A stretch of DNA of 64,000 nucleotides from Bacillota bacterium (GTDB lineage Bacteria; Bacillota; Sulfobacillia; JACIYH01). The translations under genes were made by a program, and so were the position numbers. Where the stretch lies: NCBI GenBank assembly GCA_030019365.1, contig JASEFA010000004.1, forward strand, positions 35,262 to 99,261. The letters run 5' to 3'. Below, piece by piece: positions 1-63,144 of the stretch. How positions within the stretch are numbered: the stretch's first letter is position 1; every line of letters begins with the position of its first letter. The notes beneath the pieces were generated by a model. That model was not told where the DNA came from. It saw only the letters and a program-made list of their open reading frames with translations, and did not search any database.

Positions 1-288
1 GCGTGGGAGACGCTGGAGTGGCTCAGGAGCGCGATTAACGCCGCCTGGGAGAGGAGACACGAGCTGTCACCGGCCTGCCCGGACCGGCGGGCACCTGGCG
101 CCCTGGAGGTGTGGAGGCTGCTGCCGCGCACCAACTGCCGGCGGTGCGGGGAGCTTACCTGCATGGCGTTCGCCGCGAGGCTGGTCATGGGGGAGCAGCG
201 GCTCTCGGGCTGCCCCGCCCTGGGGGAGGCCGGGTACGCCTCCGCCCGGGAGGCCCTGGAGGAACTGGTGGGTGAGGGTGCGTGGTGA
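1..288 (+). CDS. 3' end of a gene (partial at window edge) encoding a putative Fe-S cluster domain protein (PF04060-like CxxCGxxxC motif)
   Basis: Frame-3 translation reads ...RLLPRTNCRRCGELTCMAFAARLVMGEQRLSGCPALGE... and ends at TGA 286-288. This is clearly paralogous to the LLPRSNCGRCGEPACLAFAAKVASGERGARDCPVL segment of ORF 10892..11842. The motif resembles the N-terminal 4Fe-4S domain of corrinoid Fe-S protein / RnfB-type proteins (established knowledge, not searched). Confidence 0.45.
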   Translation, partial: AWETLEWLRSAINAAWERRHELSPACPDRRAPGALEVWRLLPRTNCRRCGELTCMAFAARLVMGEQRLSGCPALGEAGYASAREALEELVGEGAW

Positions 289-1075
289 AGGGGCCCGGGG
301 GAGGAGGGCCGTGGGGACCATGCCGCGAGCCGGATCCCGGGGGGCGGGAGCCTGGCGCCGGGTCGAGGAGATGCTGGCCGGGGACGGACCGGTGGTCGTG
401 AGCCTGGCCCCCTCTTACGTGGCGGCGTTCGAGGCCTCTCCCGGGCAGGTGGTGGCGGCGCTGCGGTCGCTGGGTTTCCGGGTGGTGGAAGAGACCGCCT
501 CGGTGCTGGGGGAGATGATCAGGCGGCGGGAGGAGATGGCGCGGGAGGCGGTCCCGGTCCTTTCGGGTTCGTGCCCGGTGGTAAGGCGCCTGATCGCCGG
601 GGAGTTCCCGTGGCTGCTTCCCCGGGTCGAGCCGGCTTCCGCCATGGGGCTTCACCTCGCCCGGCTCAGGTACCGGTACCCGGGTGCGCGTGCGGTCTTC
701 CTGGGGCCGTGCGAGGCCAAGCGCCTGCTGCCCGAGCCCGTGCAGCCGGACGCGGTGCTCACCTTCCGGGAAGTGGCGTCCTGGTGGTACGCCAGGGGAA
801 TCGACCCCGGGCGGTGCGAGCCCTCGGTGCCCGACCGCACGGCGGACGCCCTGGCCCGTATCTCGGTGGCCGTGGTTCACGCAAGTGGGCTGGAGGAATG
901 CCGCCGGATGCTTTCCCGGGTCAGCGCCGGTCCCTGGGAGGGACTGCCCTACCTGGAGATCACCGCCTGCCCCGGCGGGTGCCTGAACGGGCCGGGGATG
1001 CCGCCGGCGGACGCAGGGGAGCGCCGGCAGAAGGCAGTGCAGTACGCCATGGAGGCGGAGTTGTGCCTCCGCTAA
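272..1075 (+). CDS. [FeFe]-hydrogenase large-subunit C-terminal (H-cluster-like) domain protein; more likely start is ATG at about 320
   Basis: ORF-track protein contains FLGPCEAKRLL (like the MPCxxKxxE L2 motif) and EITACPGGCLNGPGMP (like the ExMACxGGCxxGGGQP L3 motif), plus a degenerate L1 (SGSCPVV). It overlaps the upstream Fe-S-domain gene by 17 nt in another frame, so the two may be one gene broken by a frameshift. Confidence 0.55.
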   Translation: MRVRGEGARGRRAVGTMPRAGSRGAGAWRRVEEMLAGDGPVVVSLAPSYVAAFEASPGQVVAALRSLGFRVVEETASVLGEMIRRREEMAREAVPVLSGSCPVVRRLIAGEFPWLLPRVEPASAMGLHLARLRYRYPGARAVFLGPCEAKRLLPEPVQPDAVLTFREVASWWYARGIDPGRCEPSVPDRTADALARISVAVVHASGLEECRRMLSRVSAGPWEGLPYLEITACPGGCLNGPGMPPADAGERRQKAVQYAMEAELCLR

Positions 1076-1093
1076 GCCGGCGGGAGGTGTGAG

Positions 1094-1372
1094 GTGTTGG
1101 CGGTAGCAAGGCTCAATGTCGAGCTGGGAGGGGGCCTCGGGCGGCTGGTGGGCAAGGAGAGCGTGGAAGTGGAGCTGGACCTTCCCGCGCGCAGGGAGGA
1201 GGTGATCTCCGCCCTGGCGGAGCAGGTACCGGAGTTGTCGCGCCTGCTGGGCACGGGGGAAGCGGCGAGGTCCCTGGTGGCCGTGAGCGTGGGGGGCGTG
1301 GTGCTGCGCGAAGGGCAGGAGGTCGGCCCCGGGGACTCCGTGTCGGTGTTCATGGCCTTTGCCGGAGGGTGA
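1094..1372 (+). CDS. MoaD/ThiS-family small sulfur-carrier protein
   Basis: 92-aa protein ending ...VFMAFAGG followed directly by a stop. The C-terminal Gly-Gly is the hallmark of MoaD/ThiS beta-grasp carriers. Its stop overlaps the next gene by 4 nt. Confidence 0.55.
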   Translation: MLAVARLNVELGGGLGRLVGKESVEVELDLPARREEVISALAEQVPELSRLLGTGEAARSLVAVSVGGVVLREGQEVGPGDSVSVFMAFAGG

Positions 1373-1878
1373 GGGGGGAGAGCGTGATACCGGGAGTGCG
1401 CCTGGTGGTGGTGGGGGGCGTGGAGGTGGGCCTCATCGGCCTGGACGAGGCCTTCGCGGAGCTCGAGGCGGCCGGGATCGTTGACCCCGAGGGACGCAAG
1501 GCTTTCCTGCTCTCCCGCGTCAAGGAGAAGAACTACGTGCCTGGGCGCAGGGAGGTGGCCTACGCGGAGGCGCTGCTCGAGGAGTACCTGGTGTGGAAGG
1601 GGGAGCGGCCGCCGCGGAAGAGTGCGGTCCCCAAGGTGAAGGTGCTGGGGCCGGGATGCCCCAACTGCCAGGCGCTGGAGCGCCTGGTGCTGGACGTCCT
1701 GGGCGAGCTGGGGGTGGGGGTTGACTTCGAGCACGTGCGCGACCCGCGGGAGATAGGGCGGTTCGGGGTGTTCGCCTCGCCCGCGCTGGCGGTGGGGGAC
1801 CGCCTGCTCGTGTCGGGGCGGGTGCCGCGCCGGGAGGAACTGAAGAGGATGCTGCAGGAGGCCCTGGAGTCGCGCTGA
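1369..1878 (+). CDS. Two-domain protein with C-terminal thioredoxin-fold redox-active disulfide domain (CPNC; TM0996/MTH895-like); N-terminal domain unassigned
   Basis: C-terminal ~80 aa KVKVLGPGCPNCQALERLV...FASPALAVGDRLLVSGRVP aligns with the stand-alone thioredoxin-like ORF 6499..6735 (MKIEVLGPGCQKCQALLKNV...). Likely start is GTG ~1384 after GAGGGGGGAGAG. It is translationally coupled to the MoaD-like gene. Confidence 0.5.
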   Translation: MRGESVIPGVRLVVVGGVEVGLIGLDEAFAELEAAGIVDPEGRKAFLLSRVKEKNYVPGRREVAYAEALLEEYLVWKGERPPRKSAVPKVKVLGPGCPNCQALERLVLDVLGELGVGVDFEHVRDPREIGRFGVFASPALAVGDRLLVSGRVPRREELKRMLQEALESR

Positions 1879-2008
1879 GGGATCCTAACCCGGCACGTCC
1901 CGCAGCTACCGCGGCCCGGTACTGGCCTGTCTCTGGCGTCACACCTGACGGCGAAGGGTTCAGGGTACTACCGGCGCATCACCCGATGACACGGGCATCG
2001 GCAGAAGG

Positions 2009-2901
2009 TCAGCGCAGCGCCTCCAGCACCAGCCCGGTGGCCACCGCTACCAGGAAGACGGTGAGGGCGAAGGTCGCTACTGTTCTTTTCTTGAAGAGGG
2101 AACCCAGCAGGGCGAGCTCGGGGATGCTGGCCCCCGCCCCCCGATGAGCAGGGCGACCACAGCCCCCAGGCTCATGCCCTTGGAGGCGAGCACCGCCCCG
2201 ATGGGGATGATAGTCTCGGCGCGGATGTACATGGGGACTCCGAGAGCAGCCGCCACCAGTATGGCGAAGGGATTGTGCGGTCCGGCCAGCCTGACGACGA
2301 GCTCCTGGGGCACGAATCCGTAGATGAACGCTCCGACCGCAGCGCCGACGAGGAGGTAGGGGAGCACCTGGCGGAACAGGCTCAGCGCGAACGCCAGGGC
2401 GGCGGCCAGGGCGCCGGGGGCAGGGCGCGACCCGGTCCCCTGCTCGTCGTCCCTCACGACCCTCACCCGCTTGACGTCGGCGGCGAGCCCCGCACGTTCC
2501 CAGAGGCGGCCCGAGATTACGCTGAGGGGGAAGACGAGGGCGGTGTAGGCGGCCGCGGTGGCCGGGCCCAGAATGGTGGCCATCATGGTGAGGATGACCG
2601 GGTTGAGGAGGGGTGAGGCGATGAGGAAGGCGCTGGCGGCGCCGAAGGGGACGCCCGCCCCCAGCATGCCCGCCAGGATGGGGATGGTGGAGCAGGAGCA
2701 GAAAGGCGTGACGGCTCCGAACGCCGCCGTGAGCACCGTGGCCACCCAGGCGTTCCTCCTGCCCAGGACGCTCTGGACCCTCTCGGGGGGAAGGAAGTGT
2801 GTGACGAGGCCCACCAGGAAGGTGACGGCGAGGAACAGTACCACCAGTTCGCCGGTGATGACGAGAAACCACCGGCCTGCCGCTGCCAGCGTGGATGTCA
2901 T
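2009..2901 (-). CDS. DUF318/PF03773-family permease (ArsP-like, CSCSTIP motif) with an apparent frameshift near 2130 in a C/G homopolymer run
   Basis: ORF 2077..2901 carries the permease body (TPFCSCSTIPILAGML, multiple TM segments) but ends ...LIGGRGPASPSSPCWVPSSRKEQ. The overlapping frame (ORF 2009..2872) supplies a plausible hydrophobic C-terminus ...ASIPELALLGSLFKKRTVATFALTVFLVAVATGLVLEALR. The switch falls in ctggcccccgccccccgatgag (~2125-2146). It is a paralog of ORF 6818..7999. Confidence 0.6.
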
Positions 2902-2928
2902 TTGTCGGGGCCCCCCGTCAGCGGAGTC

Positions 2929-3114
2929 TCAGCTGTCCTTCTCCTTCGGGTCGTCGGCCTGTCCGGCGCGCCCGGCGCCGGAGTCCTTCTGCTCCTTTGG
3001 CGCCTCCTCGGGTTCCTCGACGATGCGGACTCCGCAGCAGCAGGACCCGCCGCCGCCCAGGAGGCGCCGCCACAATCCTTGGTTACCCTTTGACTTCCCG
3101 GGCAAATCCGGCAT
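2929..3114 (-). CDS. Small Gly/Cys-rich protein with consecutive CCC triplet (GGGGSCCCG), unknown function
   Basis: 61-aa ORF with an excellent RBS (GGAGGTG, 7 nt, ATG). Its stop lies 26 nt before the permease start, and it sits exactly between padR and the permease on the same strand. It shares the Gly-flanked CCC motif with ORF 12410..12601. Confidence 0.45.
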   Translation of the reverse strand: MPDLPGKSKGNQGLWRRLLGGGGSCCCGVRIVEEPEEAPKEQKDSGAGRAGQADDPKEKDS

Positions 3115-3547
3115 CCACTTTCACCTCCACCGTCTCCCGTTCACCCTCGAGCGCCCGCTGCACGAGGGGTACCACCTCCGCCCAGGCCTGTGCCGCCGCC
3201 CGGTACGCCTGCTCCCCCCGCGGGGTGAGGCGGTACACCCGCCGCCGGCGCGCCCCGGTGAAGTCGGGCCGGCTTTCCAGGTAACCCTCCCGCTCCATCT
3301 CGTCCAGGAGGGGGTAGACCGTGGCCAGGGTGGGGGTGCAGCAACCGGAGGTCAGGGTGCTGAGCTCCCGTACCGCCGCGTAGGCGTGGCGGGGGGCGCG
3401 GTGGAGCACCATGAGGAGGAAGAACCGGGACAGGCCCAGGTTTATCTGGTGTTTCCAAAACTCCTTGCTGGTGAGCTCCGGCACCACAGCTTGCCCCCCG
3501 ATATATAGGTATCCTACGCATCCCTTATACCACCGGCGACAGGGCAT
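3083..3547 (-). CDS. PadR-family transcriptional regulator with Cys-containing N-terminal extension
   Basis: Winged-helix core ...LSRFFLLMVLHRAPRHAYAAVRELSTLTSGCCTPTLATVYPLLDEMEREGYLESRPDFTGARRRRVYRLTPRGEQ is typical PadR. The ~35-aa N-terminal extension MPCRRWYKGC... suggests the start may differ. Confidence 0.7.
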   Translation of the reverse strand: MPCRRWYKGCVGYLYIGGQAVVPELTSKEFWKHQINLGLSRFFLLMVLHRAPRHAYAAVRELSTLTSGCCTPTLATVYPLLDEMEREGYLESRPDFTGARRRRVYRLTPRGEQAYRAAAQAWAEVVPLVQRALEGERETVEVKVDAGFAREVKG

Positions 3548-8024: not shown

Positions 8025-8504
8025 GTGGCGGAGATCGTGTACCTGGGCCTGGCCGGGGTGCTGCTTCTGGTTTCATGGAGGAAGGACCGGGGCACCACCC
8101 GGCGGGCACTGTCCATCACCCTGGCCACGTTCAAGAAGACCATGCCCTTCATCCTCCTCGTATTCGTGCTGATGGGCGTAGCTCAGGCTTACGTGCCACG
8201 TTCGGTCATCGCTGCCGTCCTGGGTGGTCACAGTGGACCCCTGGCCGTCCTCTACGGGGAGGCGGTGGGCTCGGTGGCCCTCATCCAGCCTTCTGCCGTT
8301 TTCCCCTTTGCCGGATATCTTCTGGCCAACGGGGCGAGCATAGGGGCCCTGGCGGGGTTCATCCTCACGGCCATACTGATCGGCGTCTCCACGCTGCCCA
8401 TCGAGGTGAGCATGCTGGGGTTGCGGTTCACGGTGGCGAGGAACGTGCTGACGTTTGTGGCGGTCTTCCTGGTGGCGCTGGCGATGGGGGCGATCCTGTC
8501 ATGA
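8025..8504 (+). CDS. Half-size permease-like membrane protein (split DUF318-type permease, first gene of pair)
   Basis: 159 aa, ~4-5 TM segments, ...MLGLRFTVARNVLTF... It is a paralog of ORF 12729..13208 and related to the C-terminal repeat of the fused permeases. Confidence 0.5.
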   Translation: MAEIVYLGLAGVLLLVSWRKDRGTTRRALSITLATFKKTMPFILLVFVLMGVAQAYVPRSVIAAVLGGHSGPLAVLYGEAVGSVALIQPSAVFPFAGYLLANGASIGALAGFILTAILIGVSTLPIEVSMLGLRFTVARNVLTFVAVFLVALAMGAILS

Positions 8505-9025
8505 AGAAGCTTGACTCTTCCCTGGCCAGTCTGGTGGCGGCGGGCGTGCTGGCGGGATCGGTCTGGCTGGTTTCGCCGGCACGGGGCGCGGTGGTGGTGC
8601 ATGTGGCCTGGAATGCTCTTGCCATCTCGTGGCTCATCATCCTGAGCGTGTTCGTTTACATCGGGCTCTTACAGGCCTGGGTGAAGCCGGCGGCCATGGC
8701 CAGGTGGCTGGGTAGGAGCTCGGGGGCGAAGGGATTTGCCCTGGCTTCCACGCTGGGCATATTCCTGGGCGGGTCGCTGGTGACGGTGTTCCCCCTGCTG
8801 GCAGCCTTGCGGCAGAAGGGGGCCAGGGTCGGTGTGCTGGCCGCGCTGGTGACGGCTTGGGGAGGGAAGGCTCCGCTGCTGCCGCTGGAAGGCCGGTTCC
8901 TGGGGTGGCAGTTCGCCCTGGTGCGCATGGTCATGGTGATGCTGATGGCAGCTCTTGTGGGGGTGGGAGTGGAAAGGCTTGTGGGAGAGCGGCAGGAAGG
9001 TGGCACCAGCAGCGTGCCCGGGTGA
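8501..9025 (+). CDS. Half-size permease-like membrane protein (split DUF318-type permease, second gene of pair)
   Basis: Starts at ATG 8501 overlapping the upstream stop (ATGA). Sequence VMKKLDSSLASLVAAGVLAG...EGRFLGWQFALVRMVMVML is a paralog of ORF 13205..13780. It lies inside the longer track ORF 8075..9025. Confidence 0.5.
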   Translation: MKKLDSSLASLVAAGVLAGSVWLVSPARGAVVVHVAWNALAISWLIILSVFVYIGLLQAWVKPAAMARWLGRSSGAKGFALASTLGIFLGGSLVTVFPLLAALRQKGARVGVLAALVTAWGGKAPLLPLEGRFLGWQFALVRMVMVMLMAALVGVGVERLVGERQEGGTSSVPG

Positions 9026-9109: not shown

Positions 9110-9586
9110 ATGACGCAGCCCATGGAATGGCAGCCCGGGATGGTCACGCACGAAAACGCGATCTTCGTGTGCTTCGGCGGCCTTTCGAACACGGGGTACA
9201 TCACCGCCCTGGCGGGGATGGAAGCGGTGCGGAGGGTGGGTCTCAAGAAGGCGGCCATCTTCTGCCTGGCGGGACTTCCGGTGGAAGTGAAGATGGTGCT
9301 GGCCAAGGCGAAGGCGGCGAAAAAGATCATCACGGTGGATGGCTGTGCCAACAACTGCGCGAAGAAGCTGGTCGAGGCGGCGGGCTTTCCCATCACGAGG
9401 TCAATCACCCTGGCCGTGGACCTGGGGGTGAAGAAAGTGCCGCTGCACAGGGATCTGGACGGCGAGCCCAAGGATGTGATGGAGTACATCTCCCAGGAGG
9501 ACGTGGCCAGGACGGTCGAGGCCATACTGGCAGCGATTGAAGGCGAGGAGCCTGCCGCGGCCTCCGCATCCGGGGGTGAAGCGTGA
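9110..9586 (+). CDS. DGC-domain protein (putative zinc-binding)
   Basis: ...KIITVDGCANNCAKKLVEAAG... matches the DGC motif/cysteine pattern of PF08859-like proteins. RBS is GGGGAGGAG. Confidence 0.55.
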   Translation: MTQPMEWQPGMVTHENAIFVCFGGLSNTGYITALAGMEAVRRVGLKKAAIFCLAGLPVEVKMVLAKAKAAKKIITVDGCANNCAKKLVEAAGFPITRSITLAVDLGVKKVPLHRDLDGEPKDVMEYISQEDVARTVEAILAAIEGEEPAAASASGGEA

Positions 9587-10404
9587 TGCTGGCTGGGCCT
9601 GCCGGTGAACGCGCAGAGTGCGGGGGCGTCCTGCGGGATCTGTACGGCCACGTCATGTCTTCCCTGCGGCCGAAGACCTTTCCCTTCGGGGTCAAGCTTT
9701 ACCGCAGCCTGGACGAGCGACCGCCTGGGCTTTTGTCCCCGCGGCACCCCATGAACGTGTGCCAGGTGACAGCTCTGGTCCGCTACTACGGGCGGTGCAT
9801 GTACGCCACCTGGCAGGACATGGCGTGTGTGGTCGGCGCGGTGGCCCTGGGCATGATGGAGCCGCCGGAAAACATGCGGTCGGGGAAGATCGCCGAGATG
9901 CTGCACGCGGACCTCGATTCCGCGCGCCGCTTCACGGAACTGGTTCCGCGCATTCCGGCGGGGACTGTCAAGGCTTTTGCCGCGGCGCCGCTCGACCGGT
10001 TGACGTTTGAACCCGATATGGTGGTGATGTACGCGAACACGGCCCAAGCGGTGAGGGTGGTACAGGCCTATCTTTACCGGCGGGGAGGACGGGCGGCCTT
10101 CAGCACGGGTGGCGAATACAGCCTGTGTGCGGACATCATCGCGGAGACGTACACCAAGCACGACTTCGCTCTCGCCATCCCCTGTTTCGGGGACCGCAAG
10201 ACGGCCCTGGCGCAGGACGAGGAGCTGACGGTGGCCTTCCCTGCCGACATGGCCCAGGAGATACTGGACGGCCTGGTGGGCACGGCGAAGACGGCTGCCT
10301 ACCCGACGCCCGTGGACATAGGCTTTCCCCAGATGCCCGATTACACCCTGACGGATTGGGCGGTAGCCTTCCGTCGGGGGAAGGTGGGTTCCGGGCCCGG
10401 TTAG
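9583..10404 (+). CDS. DUF169 (COG2043-like) family protein
   Basis: 273 aa with overall resemblance to DUF169/ArCR proteins (recalled, not searched). It overlaps the DGC gene by 4 nt. Confidence 0.45.
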   Translation: MMLAGPAGERAECGGVLRDLYGHVMSSLRPKTFPFGVKLYRSLDERPPGLLSPRHPMNVCQVTALVRYYGRCMYATWQDMACVVGAVALGMMEPPENMRSGKIAEMLHADLDSARRFTELVPRIPAGTVKAFAAAPLDRLTFEPDMVVMYANTAQAVRVVQAYLYRRGGRAAFSTGGEYSLCADIIAETYTKHDFALAIPCFGDRKTALAQDEELTVAFPADMAQEILDGLVGTAKTAAYPTPVDIGFPQMPDYTLTDWAVAFRRGKVGSGPG

Positions 10405-10529: not shown

Positions 10530-10892
10530 TTGCGGAGGCCGCGGGTCTTGCTGTGCGTGTGCCGGGGGTGTCCCGGTTTTGAGCGGGTCGATGCCTGGAC
10601 CCTGGTTAATCGCCTTCGAGACAACCCTGACGTGGAATTCGCGGTGGCGCACCCCCAGCTTTGCGGTGACGATGGGCTGCGTTTCCTGGCCGACCTGGTT
10701 CGGCCGGCCGTCACGTACCTCGTGGGAGCGTGCGATCCCGCCCTGCAGCGCAAGATGTTGAAGGAAACCTTTACCGCTGCCGGTGTGAGCTTTGACGGGC
10801 AGGTGGTGCCCCTCGACCTGCGCAACATGACGACCGAAGAAGCTGCGGAGAAAGTGGCCGAGGCGGTGAGGGCGCTCAGGGCCGGACAATAG
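10530..10892 (+). CDS. MvhD/FlpD-like Cys-rich small protein (methyl-viologen-reducing hydrogenase delta subunit family)
   Basis: Internal TTG start after GGAGGAGG gives MRRPRVLLCVCRGCPGFERVDAWTLVNRLRDNPDVEFAVAHPQLCGDDG...LVGACDP. The Cys spacing is PF02662-like. It lies inside track ORF 10125..10892. Confidence 0.4.
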   Translation: MRRPRVLLCVCRGCPGFERVDAWTLVNRLRDNPDVEFAVAHPQLCGDDGLRFLADLVRPAVTYLVGACDPALQRKMLKETFTAAGVSFDGQVVPLDLRNMTTEEAAEKVAEAVRALRAGQ

Positions 10893-11842
10893 TGGCGGAC
10901 CGGAAGGGGTACTGTGGACTGCTGGTTGAGGGGGGTACGTGCGGTGCTGGAGAAGTACTCGATCAGGATCGTCCTGCCGGAATGAATCCTGCCGCCCCCA
11001 CCGTGAACGCCATCTTCGACCTGGAAGAGGACATATCGGAGTTGTTGCCGTACCTGAATGCGACGCTTCAGGGGTGCTTCTATGAACCTACCGGGCCTTA
11101 TCTGAGGTTCATGAAGGAGGGCAAGGCTGTCACGCTGCATGCCCGGCAGGTTACCATCACGCGGCTGGAGGATGAAGAAGAAGCCCGGCGGGTCATGGAG
11201 TGGCTGGTGGAGGTTATCCGCAGCACGCATGCCAACCGTGACAGGATCCAGCCCAGCCACCGGCGGCGTGCTGAGTTGAAGGTGCTGGACGTTTACAGGC
11301 TGTTACCCCGGTCCAATTGCGGCCGCTGCGGCGAACCCGCCTGCCTGGCGTTTGCGGCGAAGGTGGCCTCAGGTGAGCGCGGGGCCCGTGACTGCCCGGT
11401 TCTCTGCGAGCCGGGAAATGAGGAAAGGCTTGCCCGGCTGGAAGAAGCGTTGGGCCAGGGGGAATGCTGGCCGGACCAAGGGGGAAAAGTGATGCATCCC
11501 GAGGAGTACAGGTACAGCAAGACGCACGAGTGGGCCAAGGTTGAGGGTGACCTGGTGCGGGTGGGCCGAGGCCCGGCTGGACTGGTCCGGGGCTGCCGGT
11601 CGCGACGGTGGAGCCTGAGGCGTGCCAGCAAACGGCGGAGCTGGCCCACAAAAGCGCCCGGGCTGGCCACGTGGTGCTTCGCGGGGTCGGGGGCGGGGTG
11701 GGGGCGTATGGCCATCACATCCCGCGTCGCGCCCGGCGTTCTGCATCGCTATACGCCCTGTGAGCTCGAGATCAACCGCGAGGCAGTGCACGTCATGGAT
11801 AATCACCATGAGGGTGATCTGACACTTACTGGCAAGTCATAG
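10892..11842 (+). CDS. Fe-S cluster domain protein (PF04060-like), with a C-terminal region that looks like a frameshifted glycine-cleavage H-protein-like remnant
   Basis: Residues ~130-180 YRLLPRSNCGRCGEPACLAFAAKVASGERGARDCPVLCEPGNEERLARLEEAL are paralogous to the window-start gene. From ATG ~11494 the sequence MHPEEYRYSKTHEWAKVEGDLVRVG matches the conserved GcvH N-terminus, then similarity is lost in all frames. Gene boundaries are uncertain. Confidence 0.4.
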   Translation: MADRKGYCGLLVEGGTCGAGEVLDQDRPAGMNPAAPTVNAIFDLEEDISELLPYLNATLQGCFYEPTGPYLRFMKEGKAVTLHARQVTITRLEDEEEARRVMEWLVEVIRSTHANRDRIQPSHRRRAELKVLDVYRLLPRSNCGRCGEPACLAFAAKVASGERGARDCPVLCEPGNEERLARLEEALGQGECWPDQGGKVMHPEEYRYSKTHEWAKVEGDLVRVGRGPAGLVRGCRSRRWSLRRASKRRSWPTKAPGLATWCFAGSGAGWGRMAITSRVAPGVLHRYTPCELEINREAVHVMDNHHEGDLTLTGKS

Positions 11843-11986: not shown

Positions 11987-12382
11987 ATGTGCGGCGAGCA
12001 TGGCCGCGGTTTCCGCGCGGGCGCCTGCGGCTGTCATGACCGGCGGGGGGAGAGGTTCCTGGAAGCGTGGCTGCTTCTGCTTTTGAAGAGTGGCCCGTCC
12101 CATGGTTACCAGCTGGTGGAACGCCTGGGCCAGGTGCTGGGCGGAAGTGGGTTTCCGGACCCCGGTACGGTGTACAGGAACCTGCGGCGAATGGAGGAGG
12201 AAGGGCTGGTGAGTTCGAGCTGGGACCTCCAGGACAGCGGCCCGCCGCGCCGTCTGTATCGGCTGACCGAGCAGGGCGAGGAGTTGCTCCACGTGTGGGC
12301 TGCGAACGTGGAACATTACCGGGCCCGGCTTGACCGGTTCCTCGGGATGTACCGCGAGCTTGCGGGCGATTCCCGGGGCTAG
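11987..12382 (+). CDS. PadR-family transcriptional regulator with Cys-rich N-terminal extension (MCGEHGRGFRAGACGCH)
   Basis: Core ...WLLLLLKSGPSHGYQLVERLGQVLGGSGFPDPGTVYRNLRRMEEEGLVSSSWDLQDSGPPRRLYRLTEQGEELL is typical PadR. The N-terminal extension resembles the N-terminus of the next small protein. Confidence 0.7.
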   Translation: MCGEHGRGFRAGACGCHDRRGERFLEAWLLLLLKSGPSHGYQLVERLGQVLGGSGFPDPGTVYRNLRRMEEEGLVSSSWDLQDSGPPRRLYRLTEQGEELLHVWAANVEHYRARLDRFLGMYRELAGDSRG

Positions 12383-12728: not shown

Positions 12729-13208
12729 GTGGCGTTCAACCTGGCGCTGTATGCTGTGTCGGCAGTGGTGGTCCTTGTTTCCGCGCTGCGGGACCGGGGT
12801 AAGACACGCCAGGCGCTGGCCGTTGCCTGGCGTTCGTTTTGCCGGGTTGCCCCTTCCATGCTGGGCATCATGGGGCTCATCGGGCTGGTGCTGACTCTGA
12901 CTCCGGCGAGCACGATAGTCACCCTGTTTAACAACCAGAACGTTTGGGGCATCTTGCTGGTTGCCGCCGTCGGGGCGGTGACGCTGATCCCCGGGATCAT
13001 CGCCTATCCCCTAGCGGGTTCCCTGGTGCGCCAGGGAGCGGGGGTGGTGCCGATCGCGGCGTTCATGACCACTCTCATGATGGTCGGCGTGGTAACCGCT
13101 CCCCTGGAGAGCCACTATTTCGGCCGGCGTTTCGCGCTCCTCCGTAACGGCCTCAGTTTCATTGCCGCGTTGGCCATAGCGGCCGCCATGGGGGTGGTGC
13201 TGGGGTGA
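12729..13208 (+). CDS. Half-size permease-like membrane protein (split DUF318-type permease, first gene of pair)
   Basis: Paralog of 8025..8504 (...HYFGRRFALLRNGLSFIAALAIAAAMGVVL). It starts at GTG with GGAGGGAGTGGAGTGG upstream. Confidence 0.5.
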   Translation: MAFNLALYAVSAVVVLVSALRDRGKTRQALAVAWRSFCRVAPSMLGIMGLIGLVLTLTPASTIVTLFNNQNVWGILLVAAVGAVTLIPGIIAYPLAGSLVRQGAGVVPIAAFMTTLMMVGVVTAPLESHYFGRRFALLRNGLSFIAALAIAAAMGVVLG

Positions 13209-13780
13209 GCCCTGGCGGTCGATTGGGGACGAAGCTGGCGAGGCTGCGGCCGTACGCCCTCCTCATTCTCACGCTTGTGGGCGATCTGGCCCTGGGTGTG
13301 GTGAGGCCCGGGCTGGGGTGGCAGGCCGTGCGGACGTCCGCTTCTTACCTGTTGGAAATGCTGCTGGTGCTGCCCCCCATCTTCGTGCTGATCGGCATGC
13401 TGGAGGTGTGGGTTCCCCGGCAGACCATCGTGCGCAACGTGGGCCCCGGGTCCGGACTGCGCGGGCTGGCACTCTCTGTTTTGACCGGGTCTGCTGCTGC
13501 CGGGCCGCTCTACGGGGCCTTTCCCGTGGCCGAGTCTTTGCTCAGGAAGGGTTGTTCGGTATTCAACGCGTGCGTGCTGCTCTGCACCTGGGCGGCGGTG
13601 AAAATCCCCATGATCATGATGGAGGTGAAGTTCCTGGGCTGGCGGTTTTCCCTGGCCCGGCTGGCCTTCACGCTGCCGGCCATCGTGCTCATAAGCTGGC
13701 TGGTGGATCGCTTCACGCCTCGCCTGGGTGGGTTGTGCGGAGAAGACCGGCCTGGGGTGGGTCGGGAGATGCCGCGGTGA
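13205..13780 (+). CDS. Half-size permease-like membrane protein (split DUF318-type permease, second gene of pair)
   Basis: 4-nt overlap with the upstream gene. ...KFLGWRFSLARLAFTLPAIVLISWL is a paralog of 8501..9025. Confidence 0.5.
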   Translation: MSPGGRLGTKLARLRPYALLILTLVGDLALGVVRPGLGWQAVRTSASYLLEMLLVLPPIFVLIGMLEVWVPRQTIVRNVGPGSGLRGLALSVLTGSAAAGPLYGAFPVAESLLRKGCSVFNACVLLCTWAAVKIPMIMMEVKFLGWRFSLARLAFTLPAIVLISWLVDRFTPRLGGLCGEDRPGVGREMPR

Positions 13781-13813: not shown

Positions 13814-14128
13814 ATGCACGTTGCCGACATACTGGCGGAAAGGGAATTCTCACCTCAAGACAAGGTGCGCAAGGAGATCTACCGTTCCGGAGCCGCCAAG
13901 GTCCTTTTGATCTGCTTTGAGTCCGGTCAGGCACTGGAACCCTGCGTCATGGGTGCCGAGGTAGTGTTCTACGTGGTAGAGGGAACCGGTCGCATCAGGG
14001 TGGAATCGACCACAGTGGACGTGCGCCAGGGTTCCCTCGTGGTCGTTCCTGCCGGGCTGGAGCGCCAGATCGAGGCGTGCTCCCCCATGGTGGTGCTGGC
14101 CCTGCAGGCCCTTGGCCAGGGGGGATAG
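13814..14128 (+). CDS. Cupin-domain protein
   Basis: 104 aa with a two-motif cupin-like pattern (VLLICFESGQALEPCVMGAEVVFYVVEGTGRIRVE...LVVVPAGLE). Confidence 0.6.
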   Translation: MHVADILAEREFSPQDKVRKEIYRSGAAKVLLICFESGQALEPCVMGAEVVFYVVEGTGRIRVESTTVDVRQGSLVVVPAGLERQIEACSPMVVLALQALGQGG

Positions 14129-14339: not shown

Positions 14340-15896
14340 ATGGTGGGGTGGTCCGGCGTGTTCCGGCGAGGCGCCAGTGTGTGCCCGCAAGGACGGGGTG
14401 AAAGGGGATGGTGGGAGGTGGCGGTCGGAAGCGTGAGTTTGCGGGCCAAGCGGTATGCGGCCCGCCGGGCCATGGAGTGGCTGGTGGGGTACCTGCGGCG
14501 GGATCCGGAGCGGGCCGTCGACTCCATCCTCTCGTGGGGCAAGCGGCTGGCGGTGATGGAGGCGCACCGCCGCCAGGTAGAAGAGCTGGCGGTGACTTTG
14601 CGGGATAATCCCGCCATGATGCGGTTCGTGCGCCGGCTGGCGCTGGAGGTGCATCCCAACCAGCACCGGGGTGTGGTTTTCAACTGGTTCGTGAACAGCA
14701 TCCTGCTCGGCCTCCCGGTCCAGTACGCCCTGGCGGAGAGGCTGGGTCACGGGGTTCCGCACTTCATCCTGGTGGACCCCACGGAGGCGTGCAACCTGCG
14801 GTGCGTGGGGTGTTGGGCGGGCGAGTACGCGCAGTACCACACCATGCCGTTTGAACTCCTGGACAGGATCGTGACGGAGGCGAAGGAGCTGGGGATATAC
14901 TGGATAGTCCTGTCAGGCGGCGAACCGCTGCTGTACAAGCGTCTCTTCGAGCTGTTTGCCAGGCACCGCGATGTGGCCTTCATGGCTTTCACCAACGGCA
15001 CCCTCATCGACGACCGGACGGCTGATCGGATCCTTGAGGTGGGCAACTTCGTGCCCTGCATCAGCCTGGAGGGGTTCCGGGAGAGCACGGATGGGCGCCG
15101 GGGTCCGGGTGTGTTTGACCGCATATCGGCGGCCATGGATCGGCTCAAGGAGCGGAAGCTGATCTTCGGGACGTCGGTAACCATCACGCGGCACAACGTC
15201 GAGGAGATCACATCCGATGGCTTCATCGACTGGGTCATAGACAAAGGTGCGTTCTTCGGCTGGAGCTTCCACTACATCCCGGTGGGCCGCGATCCCGACG
15301 TGGAGCTCATGGTGACGCCGGAGCAGCGGGAGTATCTGGTCTATCGAGTGAGGGAAATCAGAACTTCCAAGCCGTACCTCTGGGCTGATTTCTGGAACGA
15401 CGGTTATCTCACGAACGGGTGCATTGCTGGTGGCCGCCGCTACTTCCACATTCTGGCCTCGGGGGAGGTTGAGCCCTGCGCTTTTGCCCACTTCTCGGTC
15501 GGGAACATAAAGGACCTGAGCCTGCGGGAAGTCCTGGCGAACCCCCTGTTCCGGGCCTACCAAAAGCGGCAGCCGTTCAACCCCAACCACCTGGCGCCCT
15601 GTCCCATAATTGACAACCCCCAGGCTCTGCGCGACATCGTGGCCGAATCGGGGGCGCGCCCGACGCACCCCGGTGCGGAGAGTGTGCTGCAGGGGCCGGT
15701 CGCTGCTTACCTCGACCGGCTGTCCCGGGAGTGGCGGGAGAGGGCCGAGGGGGTGCGGCGGCGCCTGGGGCTGGGTGATGTCCAGGTTGCGGCTTGCGAA
15801 CTAGCGGTGCCGGAATCTGCTCACGGCGGGGAGGCCGGGCAGGAGGAAGGCCCAGTTGTGGCCGCGGGGCACGGGGTGGAAGGACCGGGAAGCTGA
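14340..15896 (+). CDS. Radical SAM enzyme with C-terminal SPASM/twitch-like Cys-rich domain, substrate unknown; likely start ATG ~14472
   Basis: HFILVDPTEACNLRCVGCWAGEY holds the CxxxCxxC motif. The GGEPLL glycine motif is present. The C-terminal region has additional Cys (NGCIAGGRRYFHILASGEVEPCAFAHF...APCPII). Confidence 0.7.
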   Translation: MVGWSGVFRRGASVCPQGRGERGWWEVAVGSVSLRAKRYAARRAMEWLVGYLRRDPERAVDSILSWGKRLAVMEAHRRQVEELAVTLRDNPAMMRFVRRLALEVHPNQHRGVVFNWFVNSILLGLPVQYALAERLGHGVPHFILVDPTEACNLRCVGCWAGEYAQYHTMPFELLDRIVTEAKELGIYWIVLSGGEPLLYKRLFELFARHRDVAFMAFTNGTLIDDRTADRILEVGNFVPCISLEGFRESTDGRRGPGVFDRISAAMDRLKERKLIFGTSVTITRHNVEEITSDGFIDWVIDKGAFFGWSFHYIPVGRDPDVELMVTPEQREYLVYRVREIRTSKPYLWADFWNDGYLTNGCIAGGRRYFHILASGEVEPCAFAHFSVGNIKDLSLREVLANPLFRAYQKRQPFNPNHLAPCPIIDNPQALRDIVAESGARPTHPGAESVLQGPVAAYLDRLSREWRERAEGVRRRLGLGDVQVAACELAVPESAHGGEAGQEEGPVVAAGHGVEGPGS

Positions 15897-15953
15897 GCGC
15901 CCTGTCGTGCGCAAGGTGGGGAGGGTATCCCGGCGGGCGGGGGGTGGCCGTGG

Positions 15954-17039
15954 TTGGGCGGGGCGGGCCGGGTAGGGGTGGTCACCGATAGCTGCTCTGG
16001 TGTCTCTCCCGAGATGGCGCAGGCCCTGGGTATCGAGGTGGTTCCCCTCACGGTAATCTTCGGCGAGGAGGCCTTCCTGGACGGAGTGGATATCGATACT
16101 GCTGAGTTTTACGCGCGCATGGCGCGGGGGCCTGTGCTGCCGCGCACCTCGCAACCCTCGCCCGCCCGGTTCCTGGATGCCTTCTCGCGCCTAGCGGCTC
16201 AGGGGGCAAGCGGGGTGGTCGTGGTGACGGTGGCGGGTGCTCTGAGCGGTACTTACCAGTCGGCTTTGCGGGCAGCCGCGGACTTCTCCGGACTGCCGGT
16301 TGAGGTGGTGGATTCGGGCACCGCTTCGCTGGGGCAGATGTTCGCCGTGCTGGCGGCTGCCGAGGTTGCGCGCAAGGGGTCTGAAGTGGCGCAGGTGGTG
16401 CTCAGGGTGCGGGAAGTGGCGGGCAGGACTCGGCTGTATGGCGTGCTGGAAACCCTGGAGTACCTGCGGCTCGGGGGACGCATCGGTAGGGCCGCGGCGT
16501 GGACGGGCTCGCTCCTTCAGATCAAGCCCGTGCTGGCTCTTGGCAACGGGGACATCGTTCCGGTGGCCAGGCTGAGGACCAGGGCCCGGGCGGTGGAGTT
16601 CATGCTTTCCCGTGTGGAAGGGGACTTGCGTTCGGAGCCGGGTGGCACCTTGCGCATGGGTGTCGTGCACTCCGCCTGCCCTCGCGAGGCCGGTGAGCTG
16701 GCGGAAAAGGTAAGAGAGAGATTTGTGCCCGACGAACTGGTGGTATCGGAATTGACGCCGGTAATGGGTGCTCATGCCGGGCCGGGAGTGCTCGGGGTGG
16801 CCTTTTACCGCGACTGGTGCTGCGGGTCCGACTGGGAGTTACCGTCTGCCGGCGAGCGGCGGTGCCCTGCCGCGGTTCCCCAGGCGGGTGCCGGACGCGC
16901 CGTAACGCGGTGGCCCTGGGGCAGGCAGGAAAGTCCCTGTCGTTGGTCGAAGCAGTCGAATATAGGCATGGAAGCAACCGGGTCCGTTCGGGGCGTGGGT
17001 GCGGGGAGCTTGAGTAGGTGGCAGCGGGGGTGGGACTGA
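15954..17039 (+). CDS. DegV-family (fatty-acid-binding) protein; ORF reads ~75 codons past the expected DegV end
   Basis: VGVVTDSCSGVSPEMAQALGIEVVPLTVIF...GVAFYRD has DegV-like composition (established family features, recalled). The tail WCCGSDWELPSAGERRCPAA... is not DegV-like. Confidence 0.6.
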   Translation: MGGAGRVGVVTDSCSGVSPEMAQALGIEVVPLTVIFGEEAFLDGVDIDTAEFYARMARGPVLPRTSQPSPARFLDAFSRLAAQGASGVVVVTVAGALSGTYQSALRAAADFSGLPVEVVDSGTASLGQMFAVLAAAEVARKGSEVAQVVLRVREVAGRTRLYGVLETLEYLRLGGRIGRAAAWTGSLLQIKPVLALGNGDIVPVARLRTRARAVEFMLSRVEGDLRSEPGGTLRMGVVHSACPREAGELAEKVRERFVPDELVVSELTPVMGAHAGPGVLGVAFYRDWCCGSDWELPSAGERRCPAAVPQAGAGRAVTRWPWGRQESPCRWSKQSNIGMEATGSVRGVGAGSLSRWQRGWD

Positions 17040-17158
17040 AAATACGGCGCTGTGTTCGAAGGTGGGTGCAGAGGCCGTTTCCTGGTGAGAGTCGGCGGGC
17101 CGATTTGTGTCGGGAGGCGAACTGACCCGGAGACCTGCAAGTGCAAGGAGGTGCCAGG

Positions 17159-18916
17159 ATGCGCAAGCTGGTGAGGGTCAATATGACCCAGCGGACCGTG
17201 ACTCTGGAGGATTTGCCCGAGAAGTACCGGTTCATGGGTGGGCGCTGGCTGACGTCGGCCCTGGTGGCCGATGAGGTGCCTCCCACGTGCCATCCCCTGG
17301 GGCCCAATAACCGGCTGGTGGTGGCCCCCGGCATGGTGACGGGGACGGCGGCTCCCAGTTCGGGGCGTGTGTCGGTGGGAGGCAAGTCTCCGCTCACCGG
17401 CGGCGTCAAAGAGTCGAATGCGGGCACGCCCGTAGCGCAGAGCCTTTCCAGGCTGGGAATCGCGGCTGTGCTGGTAGAAGGACAGCCCCGGGAGAAGGGG
17501 GCATTGTTTGTCCTCAGGCTGGGCAAGGGCGGAGGGGTACTTGAGCCGGCGGGGGACCTGGCGGGCCTGGGCATGTACGAGTTTGCTTCGCGTGTGCGGC
17601 AACGGTTTGGGGAGGTGGGCTTCATCGCCACCGGGCCAGCGGGTGAAAAGGGTATGGCCATGGCGGGGGTATGCTTCAACGACACCGAGTTTCGGCCGTC
17701 CCGCTATGCGGGCCGGGGCGGGCTGGGTGCCGTCATGGCGGCAAGGGGCCTGAAGGCCATCCTGGTGGACGATCAAGGTGCGCCGGGCGTTTCGCTTGCT
17801 AACCCGGATCTGTTCCGCCAGGGCCAGAGGAAACTCGCCGACGCCCTGCGCGAGCACCCCATCACCCGCCCGGGCGGCACTCTCAACTCCTTCGGCACGG
17901 CTGCCCTCATCAACGTGCTGAACGAGGCAGGAGGTCTGCCCACCCGGAACTTCAGTTCCGGCCGGTTCGAAGGAGCTGGGAGAATTGCCGGTGAGACCAT
18001 CGCGGAAACGGTGAAGGCGCGGGGCGGGCAGGGCAGGATGGGGCACGGTTGCCACCCAGGGTGCGTGATCCAGTGCAGCAACATCTGGGCAAGGCCGGAC
18101 GGGTCGGAGCACGTTTCCTGCCTGGAGTACGAATCGGTGTGGGCGCTGGGCGCCGATTGTGGTATAGACGACCTGGACGCCATAGCCGAGCTCATCTGGA
18201 TCTGCAACGATAGCGGCCTTGACACCATCGAAGCGGGAGTCACGCTGGGGGTGGCCATGGAAGCGGGTCTGCTGCCTTTCGGCGATGCCAGGACGGCTGT
18301 GGAGTTACTGAAGGAATGCGGCCGGGGGACGCCGCTGGGGCGCATCCTGGGTAACGGAGCGGCCTTTGCGGGTCGGGGGTTCGGGGTCACCCGGGTGCCT
18401 GTGGTGAAGGGTCAGGGGATGCCGGCGTACGAACCCCGTGCGGTGAAGGGGATTGGCGTCACCTACATGACTTCCCCCATGGGCGCGGACCACACTGCCG
18501 GCTACACCGTGGCCCCTGAGATTCTCTCGGTGGGAGGCAAGGCAGACCCGCTGGCCGCCGGGGGCAAGGCCAAGCTTTCTGCCGATCTGCAGGCTGCCAC
18601 CGCGTTCATCGACAGTACCGGATACTGCCTCTTCATCGCCTTTGCCGTCATGGACATTCCCAGCGGGTTCGAGGGCATGGTGGAGACCTGCAACGGCGTC
18701 CTGGGTACAGAGTGGACTGTGGCAGATGTGGCGGCCATTGGTGCCCGGATAGTGGCCATGGAACGGCGCTTCAACGAGGCGGCAGGGATTACCCGGGCCC
18801 AGGATCGCCCGCCTGAGTTCATGCGCTATGAACCCCTCCCGCCTCATAACCAGGTGTTCGATGTCTCCGACGAAGAGTTGGACCAGGTGGGAGTTCTGCT
18901 CGGGCAGGACAGGTGA
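17159..18916 (+). CDS. aor: Aldehyde:ferredoxin oxidoreductase family (tungsten-containing AOR)
   Basis: 585-aa protein with characteristic AOR N-terminal (MRKLVRVNMTQRTVTLEDLPEKYRFMGGRWLTSALV) and central/C-terminal regions. ATG 17159 is preceded by AAGGAGGTG at 6 nt. Confidence 0.8.
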   Translation: MRKLVRVNMTQRTVTLEDLPEKYRFMGGRWLTSALVADEVPPTCHPLGPNNRLVVAPGMVTGTAAPSSGRVSVGGKSPLTGGVKESNAGTPVAQSLSRLGIAAVLVEGQPREKGALFVLRLGKGGGVLEPAGDLAGLGMYEFASRVRQRFGEVGFIATGPAGEKGMAMAGVCFNDTEFRPSRYAGRGGLGAVMAARGLKAILVDDQGAPGVSLANPDLFRQGQRKLADALREHPITRPGGTLNSFGTAALINVLNEAGGLPTRNFSSGRFEGAGRIAGETIAETVKARGGQGRMGHGCHPGCVIQCSNIWARPDGSEHVSCLEYESVWALGADCGIDDLDAIAELIWICNDSGLDTIEAGVTLGVAMEAGLLPFGDARTAVELLKECGRGTPLGRILGNGAAFAGRGFGVTRVPVVKGQGMPAYEPRAVKGIGVTYMTSPMGADHTAGYTVAPEILSVGGKADPLAAGGKAKLSADLQAATAFIDSTGYCLFIAFAVMDIPSGFEGMVETCNGVLGTEWTVADVAAIGARIVAMERRFNEAAGITRAQDRPPEFMRYEPLPPHNQVFDVSDEELDQVGVLLGQDR

Positions 18917-18960
18917 GCCGGTCGCCTGGTGGGGTACGCCGAACAGGATGAAGCGGGTGG

Positions 18961-18985
18961 GGGGTTGCCGCTTAAGCGCAACCCC
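18961..18985 (+). terminator. GC-rich hairpin GGGGTTGC-cgcttaagc-GCAACCCC downstream of aor (no U-tract)
   Basis: Perfect 8-bp inverted repeat seen 45 nt after the aor stop. The loop itself is palindromic (GCTTAAGC). Confidence 0.35.
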
Positions 18986-19005
18986 CCACCTCGGAGGGAT
19001 TGGCT

Positions 19006-19437
19006 ATGCCGCTGGTGAGGGTGCGGCTATATGCTTCCTTGAGGGAATACGCCCCGGAGGGTTTCCGGAGCGAGGGCTTCACCGTGCAGCTTCCCCCGGC
19101 GAGCACTGTGGCTGACCTTTACGCGCGGCTGGGCCTGCCTGAGGAACAGGTCAAGCAGGCGTTCGTGAACGGCAGGCGGGCGGAACCCGACAGGGTGCTG
19201 GAGGACGGGGATGAGGTGGGGGTGTTTCCACCCATCGCCGGGGGAAGCGGGGAGGAGCGGAGCTGGCGTGCTCGCCGAGCGGGTGTACAGGGAGGATATC
19301 GAAGGGGGAGTCCTGCTTCACCGCGCACGCCCGGATCTGCGCAGGCTGTACGTGGAGTTGACCAGCCGGTGCCGGGGCGGATGCGTAGCATGTGTGAGGA
19401 GATCGTGGGACGAGCCCGTGGGGGATATGTCCGTTGA
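19006..19437 (+). CDS. MoaD/ThiS-like sulfur carrier (AOR-associated) whose Gly-Gly is not followed by a stop
   Basis: MPLVRVRLYASLREYAPEGF...EDGDEVGVFPPIAGG is a MoaD-type beta-grasp ending in GG at ~19248, but the frame stays open to 19437. RBS GGAGGGA is 7 nt before ATG 19006. Confidence 0.5.
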   Translation: MPLVRVRLYASLREYAPEGFRSEGFTVQLPPASTVADLYARLGLPEEQVKQAFVNGRRAEPDRVLEDGDEVGVFPPIAGGSGEERSWRARRAGVQGGYRRGSPASPRTPGSAQAVRGVDQPVPGRMRSMCEEIVGRARGGYVR

Positions 19438-20410: not shown

Positions 20411-20491
20411 GCCCTGGCCTCGGCGCCCCACGGAGGCAGGACCACAGACCACAGGGCAGCGCAGGGGAGAGTTGGGGCGGGAGGGAAAGCA

Positions 20492-26498: not shown

Positions 26499-26592
26499 CC
26501 ACCCCGGCAGGGGGAGCCCCGTCCCTTTCCCGCCCAGATGTTGCCGCCTGACCCAGTAAGCGGTTCGGACGGAAGACAGCGCCTGGGTCGGG

Positions 26593-29120: not shown

Positions 29121-29162
29121 ACTCGGATCGGCAGCTGCCCTTCCCCTGGGGCAGCCTTCTTC

Positions 29163-30368: not shown

Positions 30369-30380
30369 CGAGGTGGTGCA

Positions 30381-30776
30381 TCATGTCGTGGGATCGGTTG
30401 GGCCCACGATTATGACCCCCTGGTGAGCCCGGATCCAATTGCCCGTGGCCAGGCTCCGCATGACCGCGCGGTCAAGGCCGCGGGGCACCTGGTAGTCGAT
30501 GTCCTCCATGCACGCGGGCAGCCTCAGCTTGGCCGCCTTCAGCAACCTGGCCAGGCGCCGGTCCTGCCTGGAACTCCATTCGCGATCCACCAGCAGGCCG
30601 AAGCGCTCCTCGAAGGAAAGACCCTGCACGTCGGGTTCCTGTGCCTGGGCCAGGAAGGCCTCCGCCATCCCGTCAAGCCGCATCTCCCGCAGCCTGGCAA
30701 CCGTCTGCTGGTCAAGCATGCGATGACCCCTCCCCGCTGTAGTACGAGGGGCCCCGCAGGTTGGGGTGCTCCCCAA
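30381..30776 (-). pseudogene. istB: IS21-family IstB helper ATPase, N-terminal fragment truncated at the Walker A region
   Basis: [25 protein letters not shown]...LSFEERFGLLVDREWSSRQDRRLARLLKAAKL...LATGNWIRAHQGVIIVGPT then stop. The break coincides with the serine-recombinase fragment end. Confidence 0.6.
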
Positions 30777-63135: not shown

Positions 63136-63144
63136 CGGGCGGGG

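Follow-up and report, generated by a model that had tools for sequence, protein, structure and literature searches.

Sensory [FeFe]-hydrogenases (HydS) carry a C-terminal Cx2Cx4Cx16C cluster and have no Cys299, and in TmHydS position 353 is a glycine; deviations of this kind, such as loss of Cys299 or of the pocket methionines, also occur in active sensory-type enzymes (PMC8163306). The ultraminimal group E [FeFe]-hydrogenases of DPANN archaea, which are sister to group C, consist of the hydrogenase domain (H-domain) only and average 286 aa; these archaeal enzymes, described as fermentative, bind the H-cluster, make H2 after artificial maturation and turn H2 over (PMC11216029, Greening et al. 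2024). In Pseudodesulfovibrio mercurii ND132 an ArsR-ArsP-ArsE(PF13192)-DGC operon is induced by arsenic, and the organism makes thioarsenicals by an unknown mechanism (bioRxiv 10.1101/2022.10.17.512643). Here we analyse one edge of a 64,000-nt stretch of DNA from a Bacillota bacterium (the window; GCA_030019365.1, contig JASEFA010000004.1, positions 35,262 to 99,261; G+C 67%), where a compact H-domain protein is encoded next to a small MoaD-like protein in an arsenic-resistance-type island. We found no link between H-domain (PF02906) and ThiS/MoaD proteins in the literature searched, and the pairing, new here, appears to be undescribed.

Positions 1-1878 of the window contain four open reading frames (ORFs) in the same orientation, and these are four separate, intact, co-oriented genes at the edge of the island. 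The two at the centre are a stand-alone compact H-domain gene (311..1075, + strand), which matches the full length of the Fe_hyd_lg_C profile PF02906 (E 1.4e-26, 94 bits against a cut-off of 22.1), and a gene for a 92-aa MoaD/SAMP1-like beta-grasp protein (1094..1372, +; Pfam ThiS, 24.5 bits against a cut-off of 22.5). Before them lies the 3' part (95 codons) of an Fe-S protein gene whose 5' end is beyond the window start (1..288, +; PF04060, E 3.7e-13, 49.4 bits against a cut-off of 23), and after them a two-domain thioredoxin gene (1384..1878, +; Thioredoxin_3, and TIGR00412 (MTH895/ArsE) with 69.5 bits against a cut-off of 62). The domains named in an earlier, sequence-only reading of this stretch (PF04060, Fe_hyd_lg_C, a MoaD-type Gly-Gly carrier and a CPNC thioredoxin) are all present by hidden Markov model (HMM) matches. 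Two further assemblies were used for comparison: L001, a Logan contig that is 95% identical over window positions 1-3513 and extends 418 nt upstream of the window start, and L170, with 79% protein identity. Between the window and L170, dN/dS is 0.22 for the H-domain gene, 0.21 for the MoaD-like gene and 0.22 for the thioredoxin gene; the genes at the window edge are under purifying selection. Positions 1-2200 contain no convincing promoter or terminator, and an Rfam scan of the window gave no match.

Is the neighbourhood of the two central genes conserved? Genomic context was compared in eight lineages spread over the clade of short H-domain proteins described below. A beta-grasp protein of 87-105 aa adjoins the H-domain gene in seven of the eight: it is encoded downstream in the window/L001/L170 clade, L002, L003, L164/165 and L166/167, upstream with a 1-nt overlap in L168, and just upstream on the opposite strand (divergently) in L169. 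Scans of genome and metagenome contigs with the family profile yielded no new short-family loci, only group-C-like copies of 550-600 aa or truncated ones with at most 36% identity, and these long-form loci served as a negative control for the pairing. In the long relatives, of which 160 loci were examined, an HMM built from seven partners detected no carrier adjoining the H-domain gene, and its sole match there was marginal (E 0.009) and not adjacent. We conclude that the MoaD-like protein is a constant partner of the compact H-domain protein and that the two genes make up a conserved two-gene module.

The partner in the window has no cysteine and ends in ...AFAGG; the carriers of the other lineages likewise end in GG, except for AG in two of them. 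A profile of eight partner proteins matches MoaD (1vjk, E 1e-10) and SAMP1 through the terminal GG, and the scores against the curated MoaD and SAMP1 models lie below their cut-offs (TIGR01687, 22.1 against 49.5; SAMP1, 21.7 against 60). By these matches the carrier is assigned to the ThiS/MoaD superfamily, as a beta-grasp protein with a C-terminal Gly-Gly.

The H-domain protein was aligned to HydA1 (8a6t), CrHydA1 and CpI, with residues numbered from the Met at position 371. Its motifs are as first described: SGSCPVV in L1, GPCEAK in L2 and EITACPGGC in L3. Cys68, Cys114, Cys200 and Cys204 correspond to CpI Cys300, Cys355, Cys499 and Cys503 (the bridging cysteine), Lys117 to Lys358, and Ala13-Pro14-Ser15 to Ala230-Pro231-Ser232, meaning that all four H-cluster cysteine ligands, the lysine and the Ala-Pro-Ser motif are kept. 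What has been lost is the proton-relay Cys299 (now Ser), the L1 Trp (Val), Met353 (Gly) and Met497 (Thr); the combination of a canonical L1 (TSCCPxW), Cys299 and the pocket residues Met353 and Met497 is thus absent. The view that L1 is degenerate therefore holds for the proton-relay position and not for the ligand Cys300. About 50 of the residues that separate the GGV(M/F)E region from the L3 helix are deleted. An AlphaFold2 model built with 31 family sequences (pLDDT 93.6, pTM 0.90) superposes on the solved hydrogenases CpI and HydA1 with query-normalised TM-scores of 0.79-0.84 (0.82-0.84 for CpI).

Residue counts over 31 short family proteins and 142 long relatives sampled set these features in context. 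Cys300, Cys355 and Lys358 occur in 31/31 short proteins and are invariant in the long set, as are Cys499 and Cys503, which are found in 30/30 of the short proteins aligned there (one of the 31 is gapped). Ala230 (29/31), Pro231 (30/31) and Ser/Thr232 (30/31) are nearly as constant in the short proteins and, like Ser323 and Pro324, near-invariant in both sets. Position 353 is Gly in 27/31 short and 140/142 long proteins, and position 299 is Ser in 27/31 short proteins as against Cys in 113/142 long ones. Because Lys358, Ala230-Pro231-Ser232, Ser323 and Cys503 are conserved family-wide, we argue that the H-cluster site is of the sensory type; on this alignment the pocket is sensory (Met353 replaced by Gly), with the proton-relay cysteine exchanged for serine. 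The same residues bear on the proposal that the protein is a non-catalytic, 4Fe-4S-only form. Their conservation speaks against it, the pocket resembling that of the sensory enzymes, in which an H-cluster is bound, and the change of Pro324 to Ala in the window's subclade speaks for it; such a form is possible and is not the better-supported reading.

In an exhaustive profile search some 30 clusters (50% identity) of 230-300 aa rank first, followed by proteins of 550-600 aa whose precomputed domains are Fer4, PF02906, PF04060 and PAS, the group C sensory architecture. A neighbour-joining tree, calculated without bootstrap support and without group E sequences, places 35/35 short proteins in one clade that is sister to a long group-C-like clade. 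The compact stand-alone H-domains accordingly appear as a single small clade, sister to group C. Its named members are all from metagenome-assembled genomes (MAGs) of Bacillota (Limnochordia, Thermosediminibacterales, Tepidanaerobacteraceae), and are annotated as 'hypothetical protein' or '...C-terminal domain-containing protein'. One predicted protein in the representative library (P0012, 4122 aa) matches the profile of the compact H-domain in 14 separate stretches (359 bits); it may carry many H-domains in tandem or be an artefact of gene calling.

How might the pair function? To the reading that the H-domain-carrier complex is a slow, sensor-like H2-activating or redox module we give a little less than an even chance. 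The two proteins would form a stoichiometric complex, as MoaD does with MoaE, in which the H-domain would bind a [4Fe-4S] cluster at the least; in the presence of HydEFG the H-cluster would probably be complete. Such a module would not be a high-turnover hydrogenase, since serine at position 299 would make for slow turnover, as in sensors. In the window lineage the upstream Cx2Cx4Cx16C protein could supply in trans the accessory cluster that is fused C-terminally in HydS, and reducing equivalents may pass to the carrier C-terminus and/or to the ArsE-type thioredoxin serving the ArsP permease.

A number of observations weigh against this. Complex formation and electron flow are inferred from gene adjacency alone, and no hydrogenase with a MoaD-like partner is known. 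The PF04060 gene is missing from the other lineages, and in L170 it is replaced by a cysteine desulfurase fragment. Pro324 is changed to Ala in the window's own subclade. No MoaD-like gene was seen in L171, whose contig measures 2.8 kb and reaches just 234 nt upstream of the H-domain gene. No ThiF/MoeB-type E1, MoaE, ThiG or JAB gene occurs in any related locus, and no MoaE, MoeB or ThiF within the first 20 kb of the window; since E1, MoaE and JAB are missing across the loci, the chemistry of the carrier is unanchored. Finally, HydE, HydF and HydG were not found within the 64-kb window: both of its radical-SAM genes are of the SPASM type, and the remaining ORFs were judged by inspecting their translations. 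One related locus differs in this last respect. In L164 (Firmicutes MAG GCA_013178305.1) a TM1266-family regulator, HydE (322 bits, above the cut-off) and HydG are encoded at 18755-20819, 8 kb downstream of the pair, and between the pair and HydE/HydG lie two aldehyde:ferredoxin oxidoreductase (AOR) genes (within 6 kb) and a separate 122-aa AOR-type ThiS.

The alternative that survives best, possible though on balance unlikely, is that the protein is a [4Fe-4S]-only H-domain, as in Nar1, and that the former [2Fe] cavity with its invariant lysine takes up the Gly-Gly thiocarboxylate of the carrier, making the pair a cluster-dependent enzyme of sulfur transfer or persulfide reduction. In TtuA-TtuB, a precedent, a ThiS-like thiocarboxylate is used by a [4Fe-4S] enzyme, and the pair would possibly be analogous to it or to MoaD-MoaE; the acceptor may be a thiophilic metalloid handled by the island. 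Several features of the loci agree with such a role. The pairing of H-domain and carrier is strict, often with overlapping genes; a YeeE-type Sulf_transp gene, TusA and a Se/S-carrier gene stand upstream of the pair in L002, with aminotransferase class V genes nearby; the cysteine desulfurase fragment of L170 abuts the module; and the window has no HydEFG. Cys299 has become Ser and, in the window subclade, Pro324 has become Ala. The thioarsenicals that ND132 makes by an unknown mechanism are also in keeping with it, as is the rule that carrier genes of this superfamily usually adjoin the acceptor enzyme and not the E1 (MoaD/AOR neighbourhoods, PMC1779556). Against sulfur transfer, however, the residues that hold the [2Fe] subsite are as conserved as in sensory enzymes, no E1, rhodanese or acceptor enzyme is found consistently in the loci, the carrier ends in Ala-Gly and not Gly-Gly in two lineages, and HydE and HydG are close by in one genome.

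It is improbable that the two genes are merely coincidental neighbours, the MoaD-like gene serving the tungsten/molybdenum cofactor of an AOR (17159-18916) and the H-domain protein being what is left of a sensory hydrogenase in decay. MoaD genes linked to AORs are known from other genomes (PMC1779556), the AOR of the window is 16 kb away, and L164 has its two AORs in the vicinity. Yet L164 has the separate 122-aa ThiS beside an AOR in addition to the carrier at the H-domain gene, and the carrier is adjacent in 7/8 lineages, mostly without an AOR. A dN/dS of about 0.21 and the near-invariant ligand positions argue against decay.

Are the Fe-S and H-domain ORFs one gene or two? The sequence-only reading had left open a single frameshifted gene, on the ground that joining the ORFs would give a known architecture. 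In fact the gene order of the window, PF04060 before H-domain, is opposite to that of the fusions: all fused relatives have the order Fer4, H-domain, PF04060, mostly then PAS, with PF04060 C-terminal to the H-domain. The TGA that ends the Fe-S gene (286-288) is the same in the window, L001 and L170, three independent assemblies, even though L170 retains just the final 30 nt of the gene. The ten closest homologs of the H-domain protein (244-323 aa) all stand alone, as do homologs throughout the clade. A single gene, divided into the Fe-S ORF (1-288) and the H-domain ORF by a frameshift or sequencing error, is thus highly improbable and, as far as comparison across assemblies reaches, refuted because the stop is shared by three assemblies, the homologs are stand-alone and the order in fusions is reversed: the indels of the window assembly relative to close relatives (near 350, 742, 2140 and 2756), and the overlap of the two ORFs if GTG 272 is the start, are outweighed by these facts and by the ribosome-binding-site-like GGAGGAGG between the Fe-S stop and the H-domain start. 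The other option considered at the outset, a tightly coupled gene pair, is supported for the window lineage only.

The positions of the gene starts bear on the same question. NCBI annotates the H-domain start at 272 and Logan at 311; the possible starts are GTG 311 (254 aa), ATG 320, GTG 272 and ATG 371, for lengths of 234-267 aa. The idea that the ORF is open from 272, in overlap with the Fe-S gene, is doubtful, in that the window and L001 differ by a 1-nt indel near 350 and so do not share a frame over 272-350. The two frames meet again at the conserved peptide WRRVEEMLAG, and more distant homologs indicate that the helix at this peptide is part of the fold. As the 272-350 frame differs between assemblies and converges later, the most likely start is not 272 but GTG 311 or ATG 320, downstream of TGA 286-288; GGAGGAGG, at 299-306, precedes both. 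Nor were the 4-nt overlaps proposed for the downstream genes borne out. Between the end of the H-domain gene (1075) and the start of the MoaD-like gene (1094) lies an 18-nt spacer with a ribosome-binding site, and the thioredoxin gene overlaps the MoaD-like gene by 4 nt only if it starts at GTG 1369. Its homolog P0185 begins at the position that corresponds to GTG 1384, as do the gene calls in L001 and L170, and GTG 1384 is most likely the start.

The thioredoxin protein is 164 aa long from GTG 1384 (169 aa from GTG 1369). Its thioredoxin domain has the redox motif CPNC, and the best Foldseek match of the model is MtH895 (1ILO, 38% identity). By sequence this domain is of the MTH895/ArsE type and fits the known ArsP-ArsE module. 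Its likely functional partner is an ArsP_1-family permease encoded convergently at 2009..2901 (- strand; ArsP HMM), which has a TPFCSCS motif and whose frame is broken at a C/G run near 2140. The combination of a carrier and a redox module had been thought to lie outside any standard pathway; this is no longer so for the thioredoxin, which MTH895/ArsE with ArsP_1 explains, and remains so for the MoaD half. Ahead of the thioredoxin domain the protein has a lineage-specific N-terminal domain of about 85 aa, made up of a hairpin and three helices and free of cysteine, with one homolog in 5.8 billion proteins and no Pfam or NCBIfam match even at E 10; the description of its fold comes from a model of low confidence (pLDDT 68). 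NuoE/FdsG-like Foldseek matches of this domain (TMq ~0.3, rmsd ~12) were judged meaningless.

The permease itself deserves comment. Its NCBIfam matches, SaoE and SO_0444, are below the cut-offs, as is the match to the ArsP HMM, and its C-terminus continues in a second frame (ORF 2009-2872). Compared with L001, 1 nt is missing at the C/G run at 2130-2145, and the L001 copy has another 1-nt indel near its 5' end (near 3176). The gene may be decaying in both strains, or else homopolymer errors are present in both assemblies. As an explanation, the SAO selenoprotein system, made up of the SaoE permease and the SaoT thioredoxin, was set aside: it has no H-domain or MoaD component, and the window permeases score far below the SaoE cut-off.

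The full Fe-S protein, as completed from L001, has 175 aa, with an N-terminal domain of about 115 aa followed by PF04060; its motif Cx2Cx4Cx16C reads CRRCGELTC-x16-C in the translation. No Pfam or NCBIfam match to the N-terminal domain was found even at E 10. A second PF04060 protein is encoded at 10892-11842 (+) of the window, and it and the Fe-S protein have homologous N-terminal domains (single-sequence HMM, E 3e-31). This ORF runs into about 25 residues that resemble the N-terminus of GcvH (HPEEYRYSKTHEWAKVEGDLVRVG). A link through this fragment (~11490) between GcvH and H-cluster biosynthesis was rejected, only those ~25 residues being GcvH-like and no intact gene being present in any frame. 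At positions 1-540 of L170 a truncated cysteine desulfurase (class V aminotransferase-like) ORF is joined to the final 30 nt and stop of the Fe-S gene; either the replacement is a true rearrangement or the contig is a chimera. After this remnant come intact H-domain, MoaD-like and thioredoxin genes, and a radical SAM/SPASM gene follows the thioredoxin gene directly.

The island around the module recurs in related loci. ArsR, ArsP_1 or Trx_3 is adjacent to the module in five of the eight lineages, and an ArsC-like gene in a sixth. In L002 and L003 the ArsR, ArsP_1 and Trx_3 genes come after the module, in L168 and L169 they flank it, and in L166/167 an ArsC-like low-molecular-weight phosphatase gene is directly upstream of the pair. 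The YeeE-type Sulf_transp, TusA and Se/S-carrier genes of L002 are directly upstream on the same strand. Between 3 and 14 kb the window contains genes for PadR, a DsbD-like membrane protein with a thioredoxin, ACR3, ArsR, a second Trx_3 protein and an intact ArsP_1, together with two pairs of half-size ArsP_1 proteins, a DGC-domain protein, a DUF169 protein and the second PF04060 paralog. The first half-size tandem pair (8025-9025, +) is followed by the DGC-domain gene (9110-9586) and the DUF169 gene (9583-10404), and the second (12729-13780, +) has a PadR regulator gene (11987-12382) before it and a cupin gene (13814-14128) after it. The arrangement of a split permease with a DGC protein is also seen in L169.

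Farther into the window, at 14418-20410 (+), radical SAM/SPASM genes (14418-15896 and 19268-20410) flank a DegV-like gene and the tungsten-type AOR. Mobile-element genes at 25884-31569 separate the redox island from a nusA-infB-pnp housekeeping block; among them are the genes of an IS21-type transposase and of the helper ATPase that goes with it (26728-29120, +), and another copy, apparently split, lies at 30381-31569 (-). At the far end (60703-64000, +) lie genes for a YeiH-like membrane protein (PF03601), a DsrC/TusE-type protein ending in ...PTGCV (62818-63135) and a multi-pass membrane protein; this set of genes suggests dissimilatory sulfur metabolism in this organism.

What would the module mean more broadly? 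A more far-reaching proposal, tentative and rather doubtful, is that an H-domain scaffold with an obligate MoaD/SAMP-like partner is a new two-protein machine. It would be either the smallest H2-activating unit in nature, in which H2 or low-potential electrons are coupled to the chemistry of a protein thiocarboxylate or persulfide, or a [4Fe-4S]-only sulfur-transfer enzyme with a pocket-bound Gly-Gly tail. In both cases its role would lie in the detoxification of metalloids (As-type) or of sulfur/selenium, with enzymatic thiolation as one example. Work on [FeFe]-hydrogenases has lately turned to minimal and sensory forms, that is, to the role of the protein shell and to small catalysts. A bacterial H-domain of about 235-265 aa with its cluster site kept would rank among the smallest known, and artificial maturation offers a ready test of it. 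That such a protein has a ubiquitin-like sulfur carrier as its constant partner is without precedent in the hydrogenase or MoaD/ThiS literature searched, and the recurrent ArsR/ArsP/ArsE islands suggest that hydrogenase-type clusters, protein-bound sulfur and metalloid resistance are linked in anaerobic Firmicutes in a way not recognised before. Should the protein turn out to be a plain accessory redox protein, the annotation is still corrected, to four intact genes and no frameshifted hydrogenase.

It remains to set the locus beside known systems. Like MoaD-MoaE, SAMP1 and the AOR-linked MoaD proteins, the partner has a beta-grasp fold and a Gly-Gly end, and this carrier too is encoded beside its partner; unlike in those systems, that partner is an H-domain protein and not MoaE, ThiG, CysM or an AOR, and there is no E1 nearby. 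Nar1/NARFL (CIAO3), the model for a sulfur-transfer role, shares an H-domain-like fold in which the four cysteines are kept and the [2Fe] subsite is absent, but it is eukaryotic, has an extra N-terminal cluster and no MoaD-like partner, and gave no detectable match to the H-domain protein at the thresholds used. The organoarsenical-type operon of ND132 (DND132_2311-2314) has its counterpart in window positions 1-14 kb, where ArsP_1 with the CSC motif, a PF13192 thioredoxin, DGC proteins and ArsR are all encoded. The window differs in that its thioredoxin has an extra N-terminal helical domain, and the gene for it accompanies the H-domain/MoaD pair and is convergent with that of a frameshifted ArsP.

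The nearest sequence relatives are the group C/D sensory [FeFe]-hydrogenases (TmHydS, TamHydS), which likewise have a compact H-domain of about 265 aa, Gly in place of Met353, no conserved Met497, no canonical proton pathway and an accessory Cx2Cx4Cx16C [4Fe-4S] cluster. In contrast to group C HydS (M2f), the window protein has neither the N-terminal 2x[4Fe-4S] Fer4 domain nor PAS, and so does not have the group C architecture; the PF04060 domain is on a separate upstream protein with an unmatched N-terminal domain, in the window lineage only; and the MoaD-like partner stands beside the compact form and beside none of the 160 long-form loci. By published description the closest analogue of the compact clade is archaeal group E, with which it shares an H-domain-only protein of less than 300 aa, a site for a single [4Fe-4S] cluster plus the H-cluster, and a position as sister to group C. 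The compact family differs from group E in being bacterial wherever named, in being shorter (230-270 aa), and in its place in ars-type islands with a MoaD-like partner.

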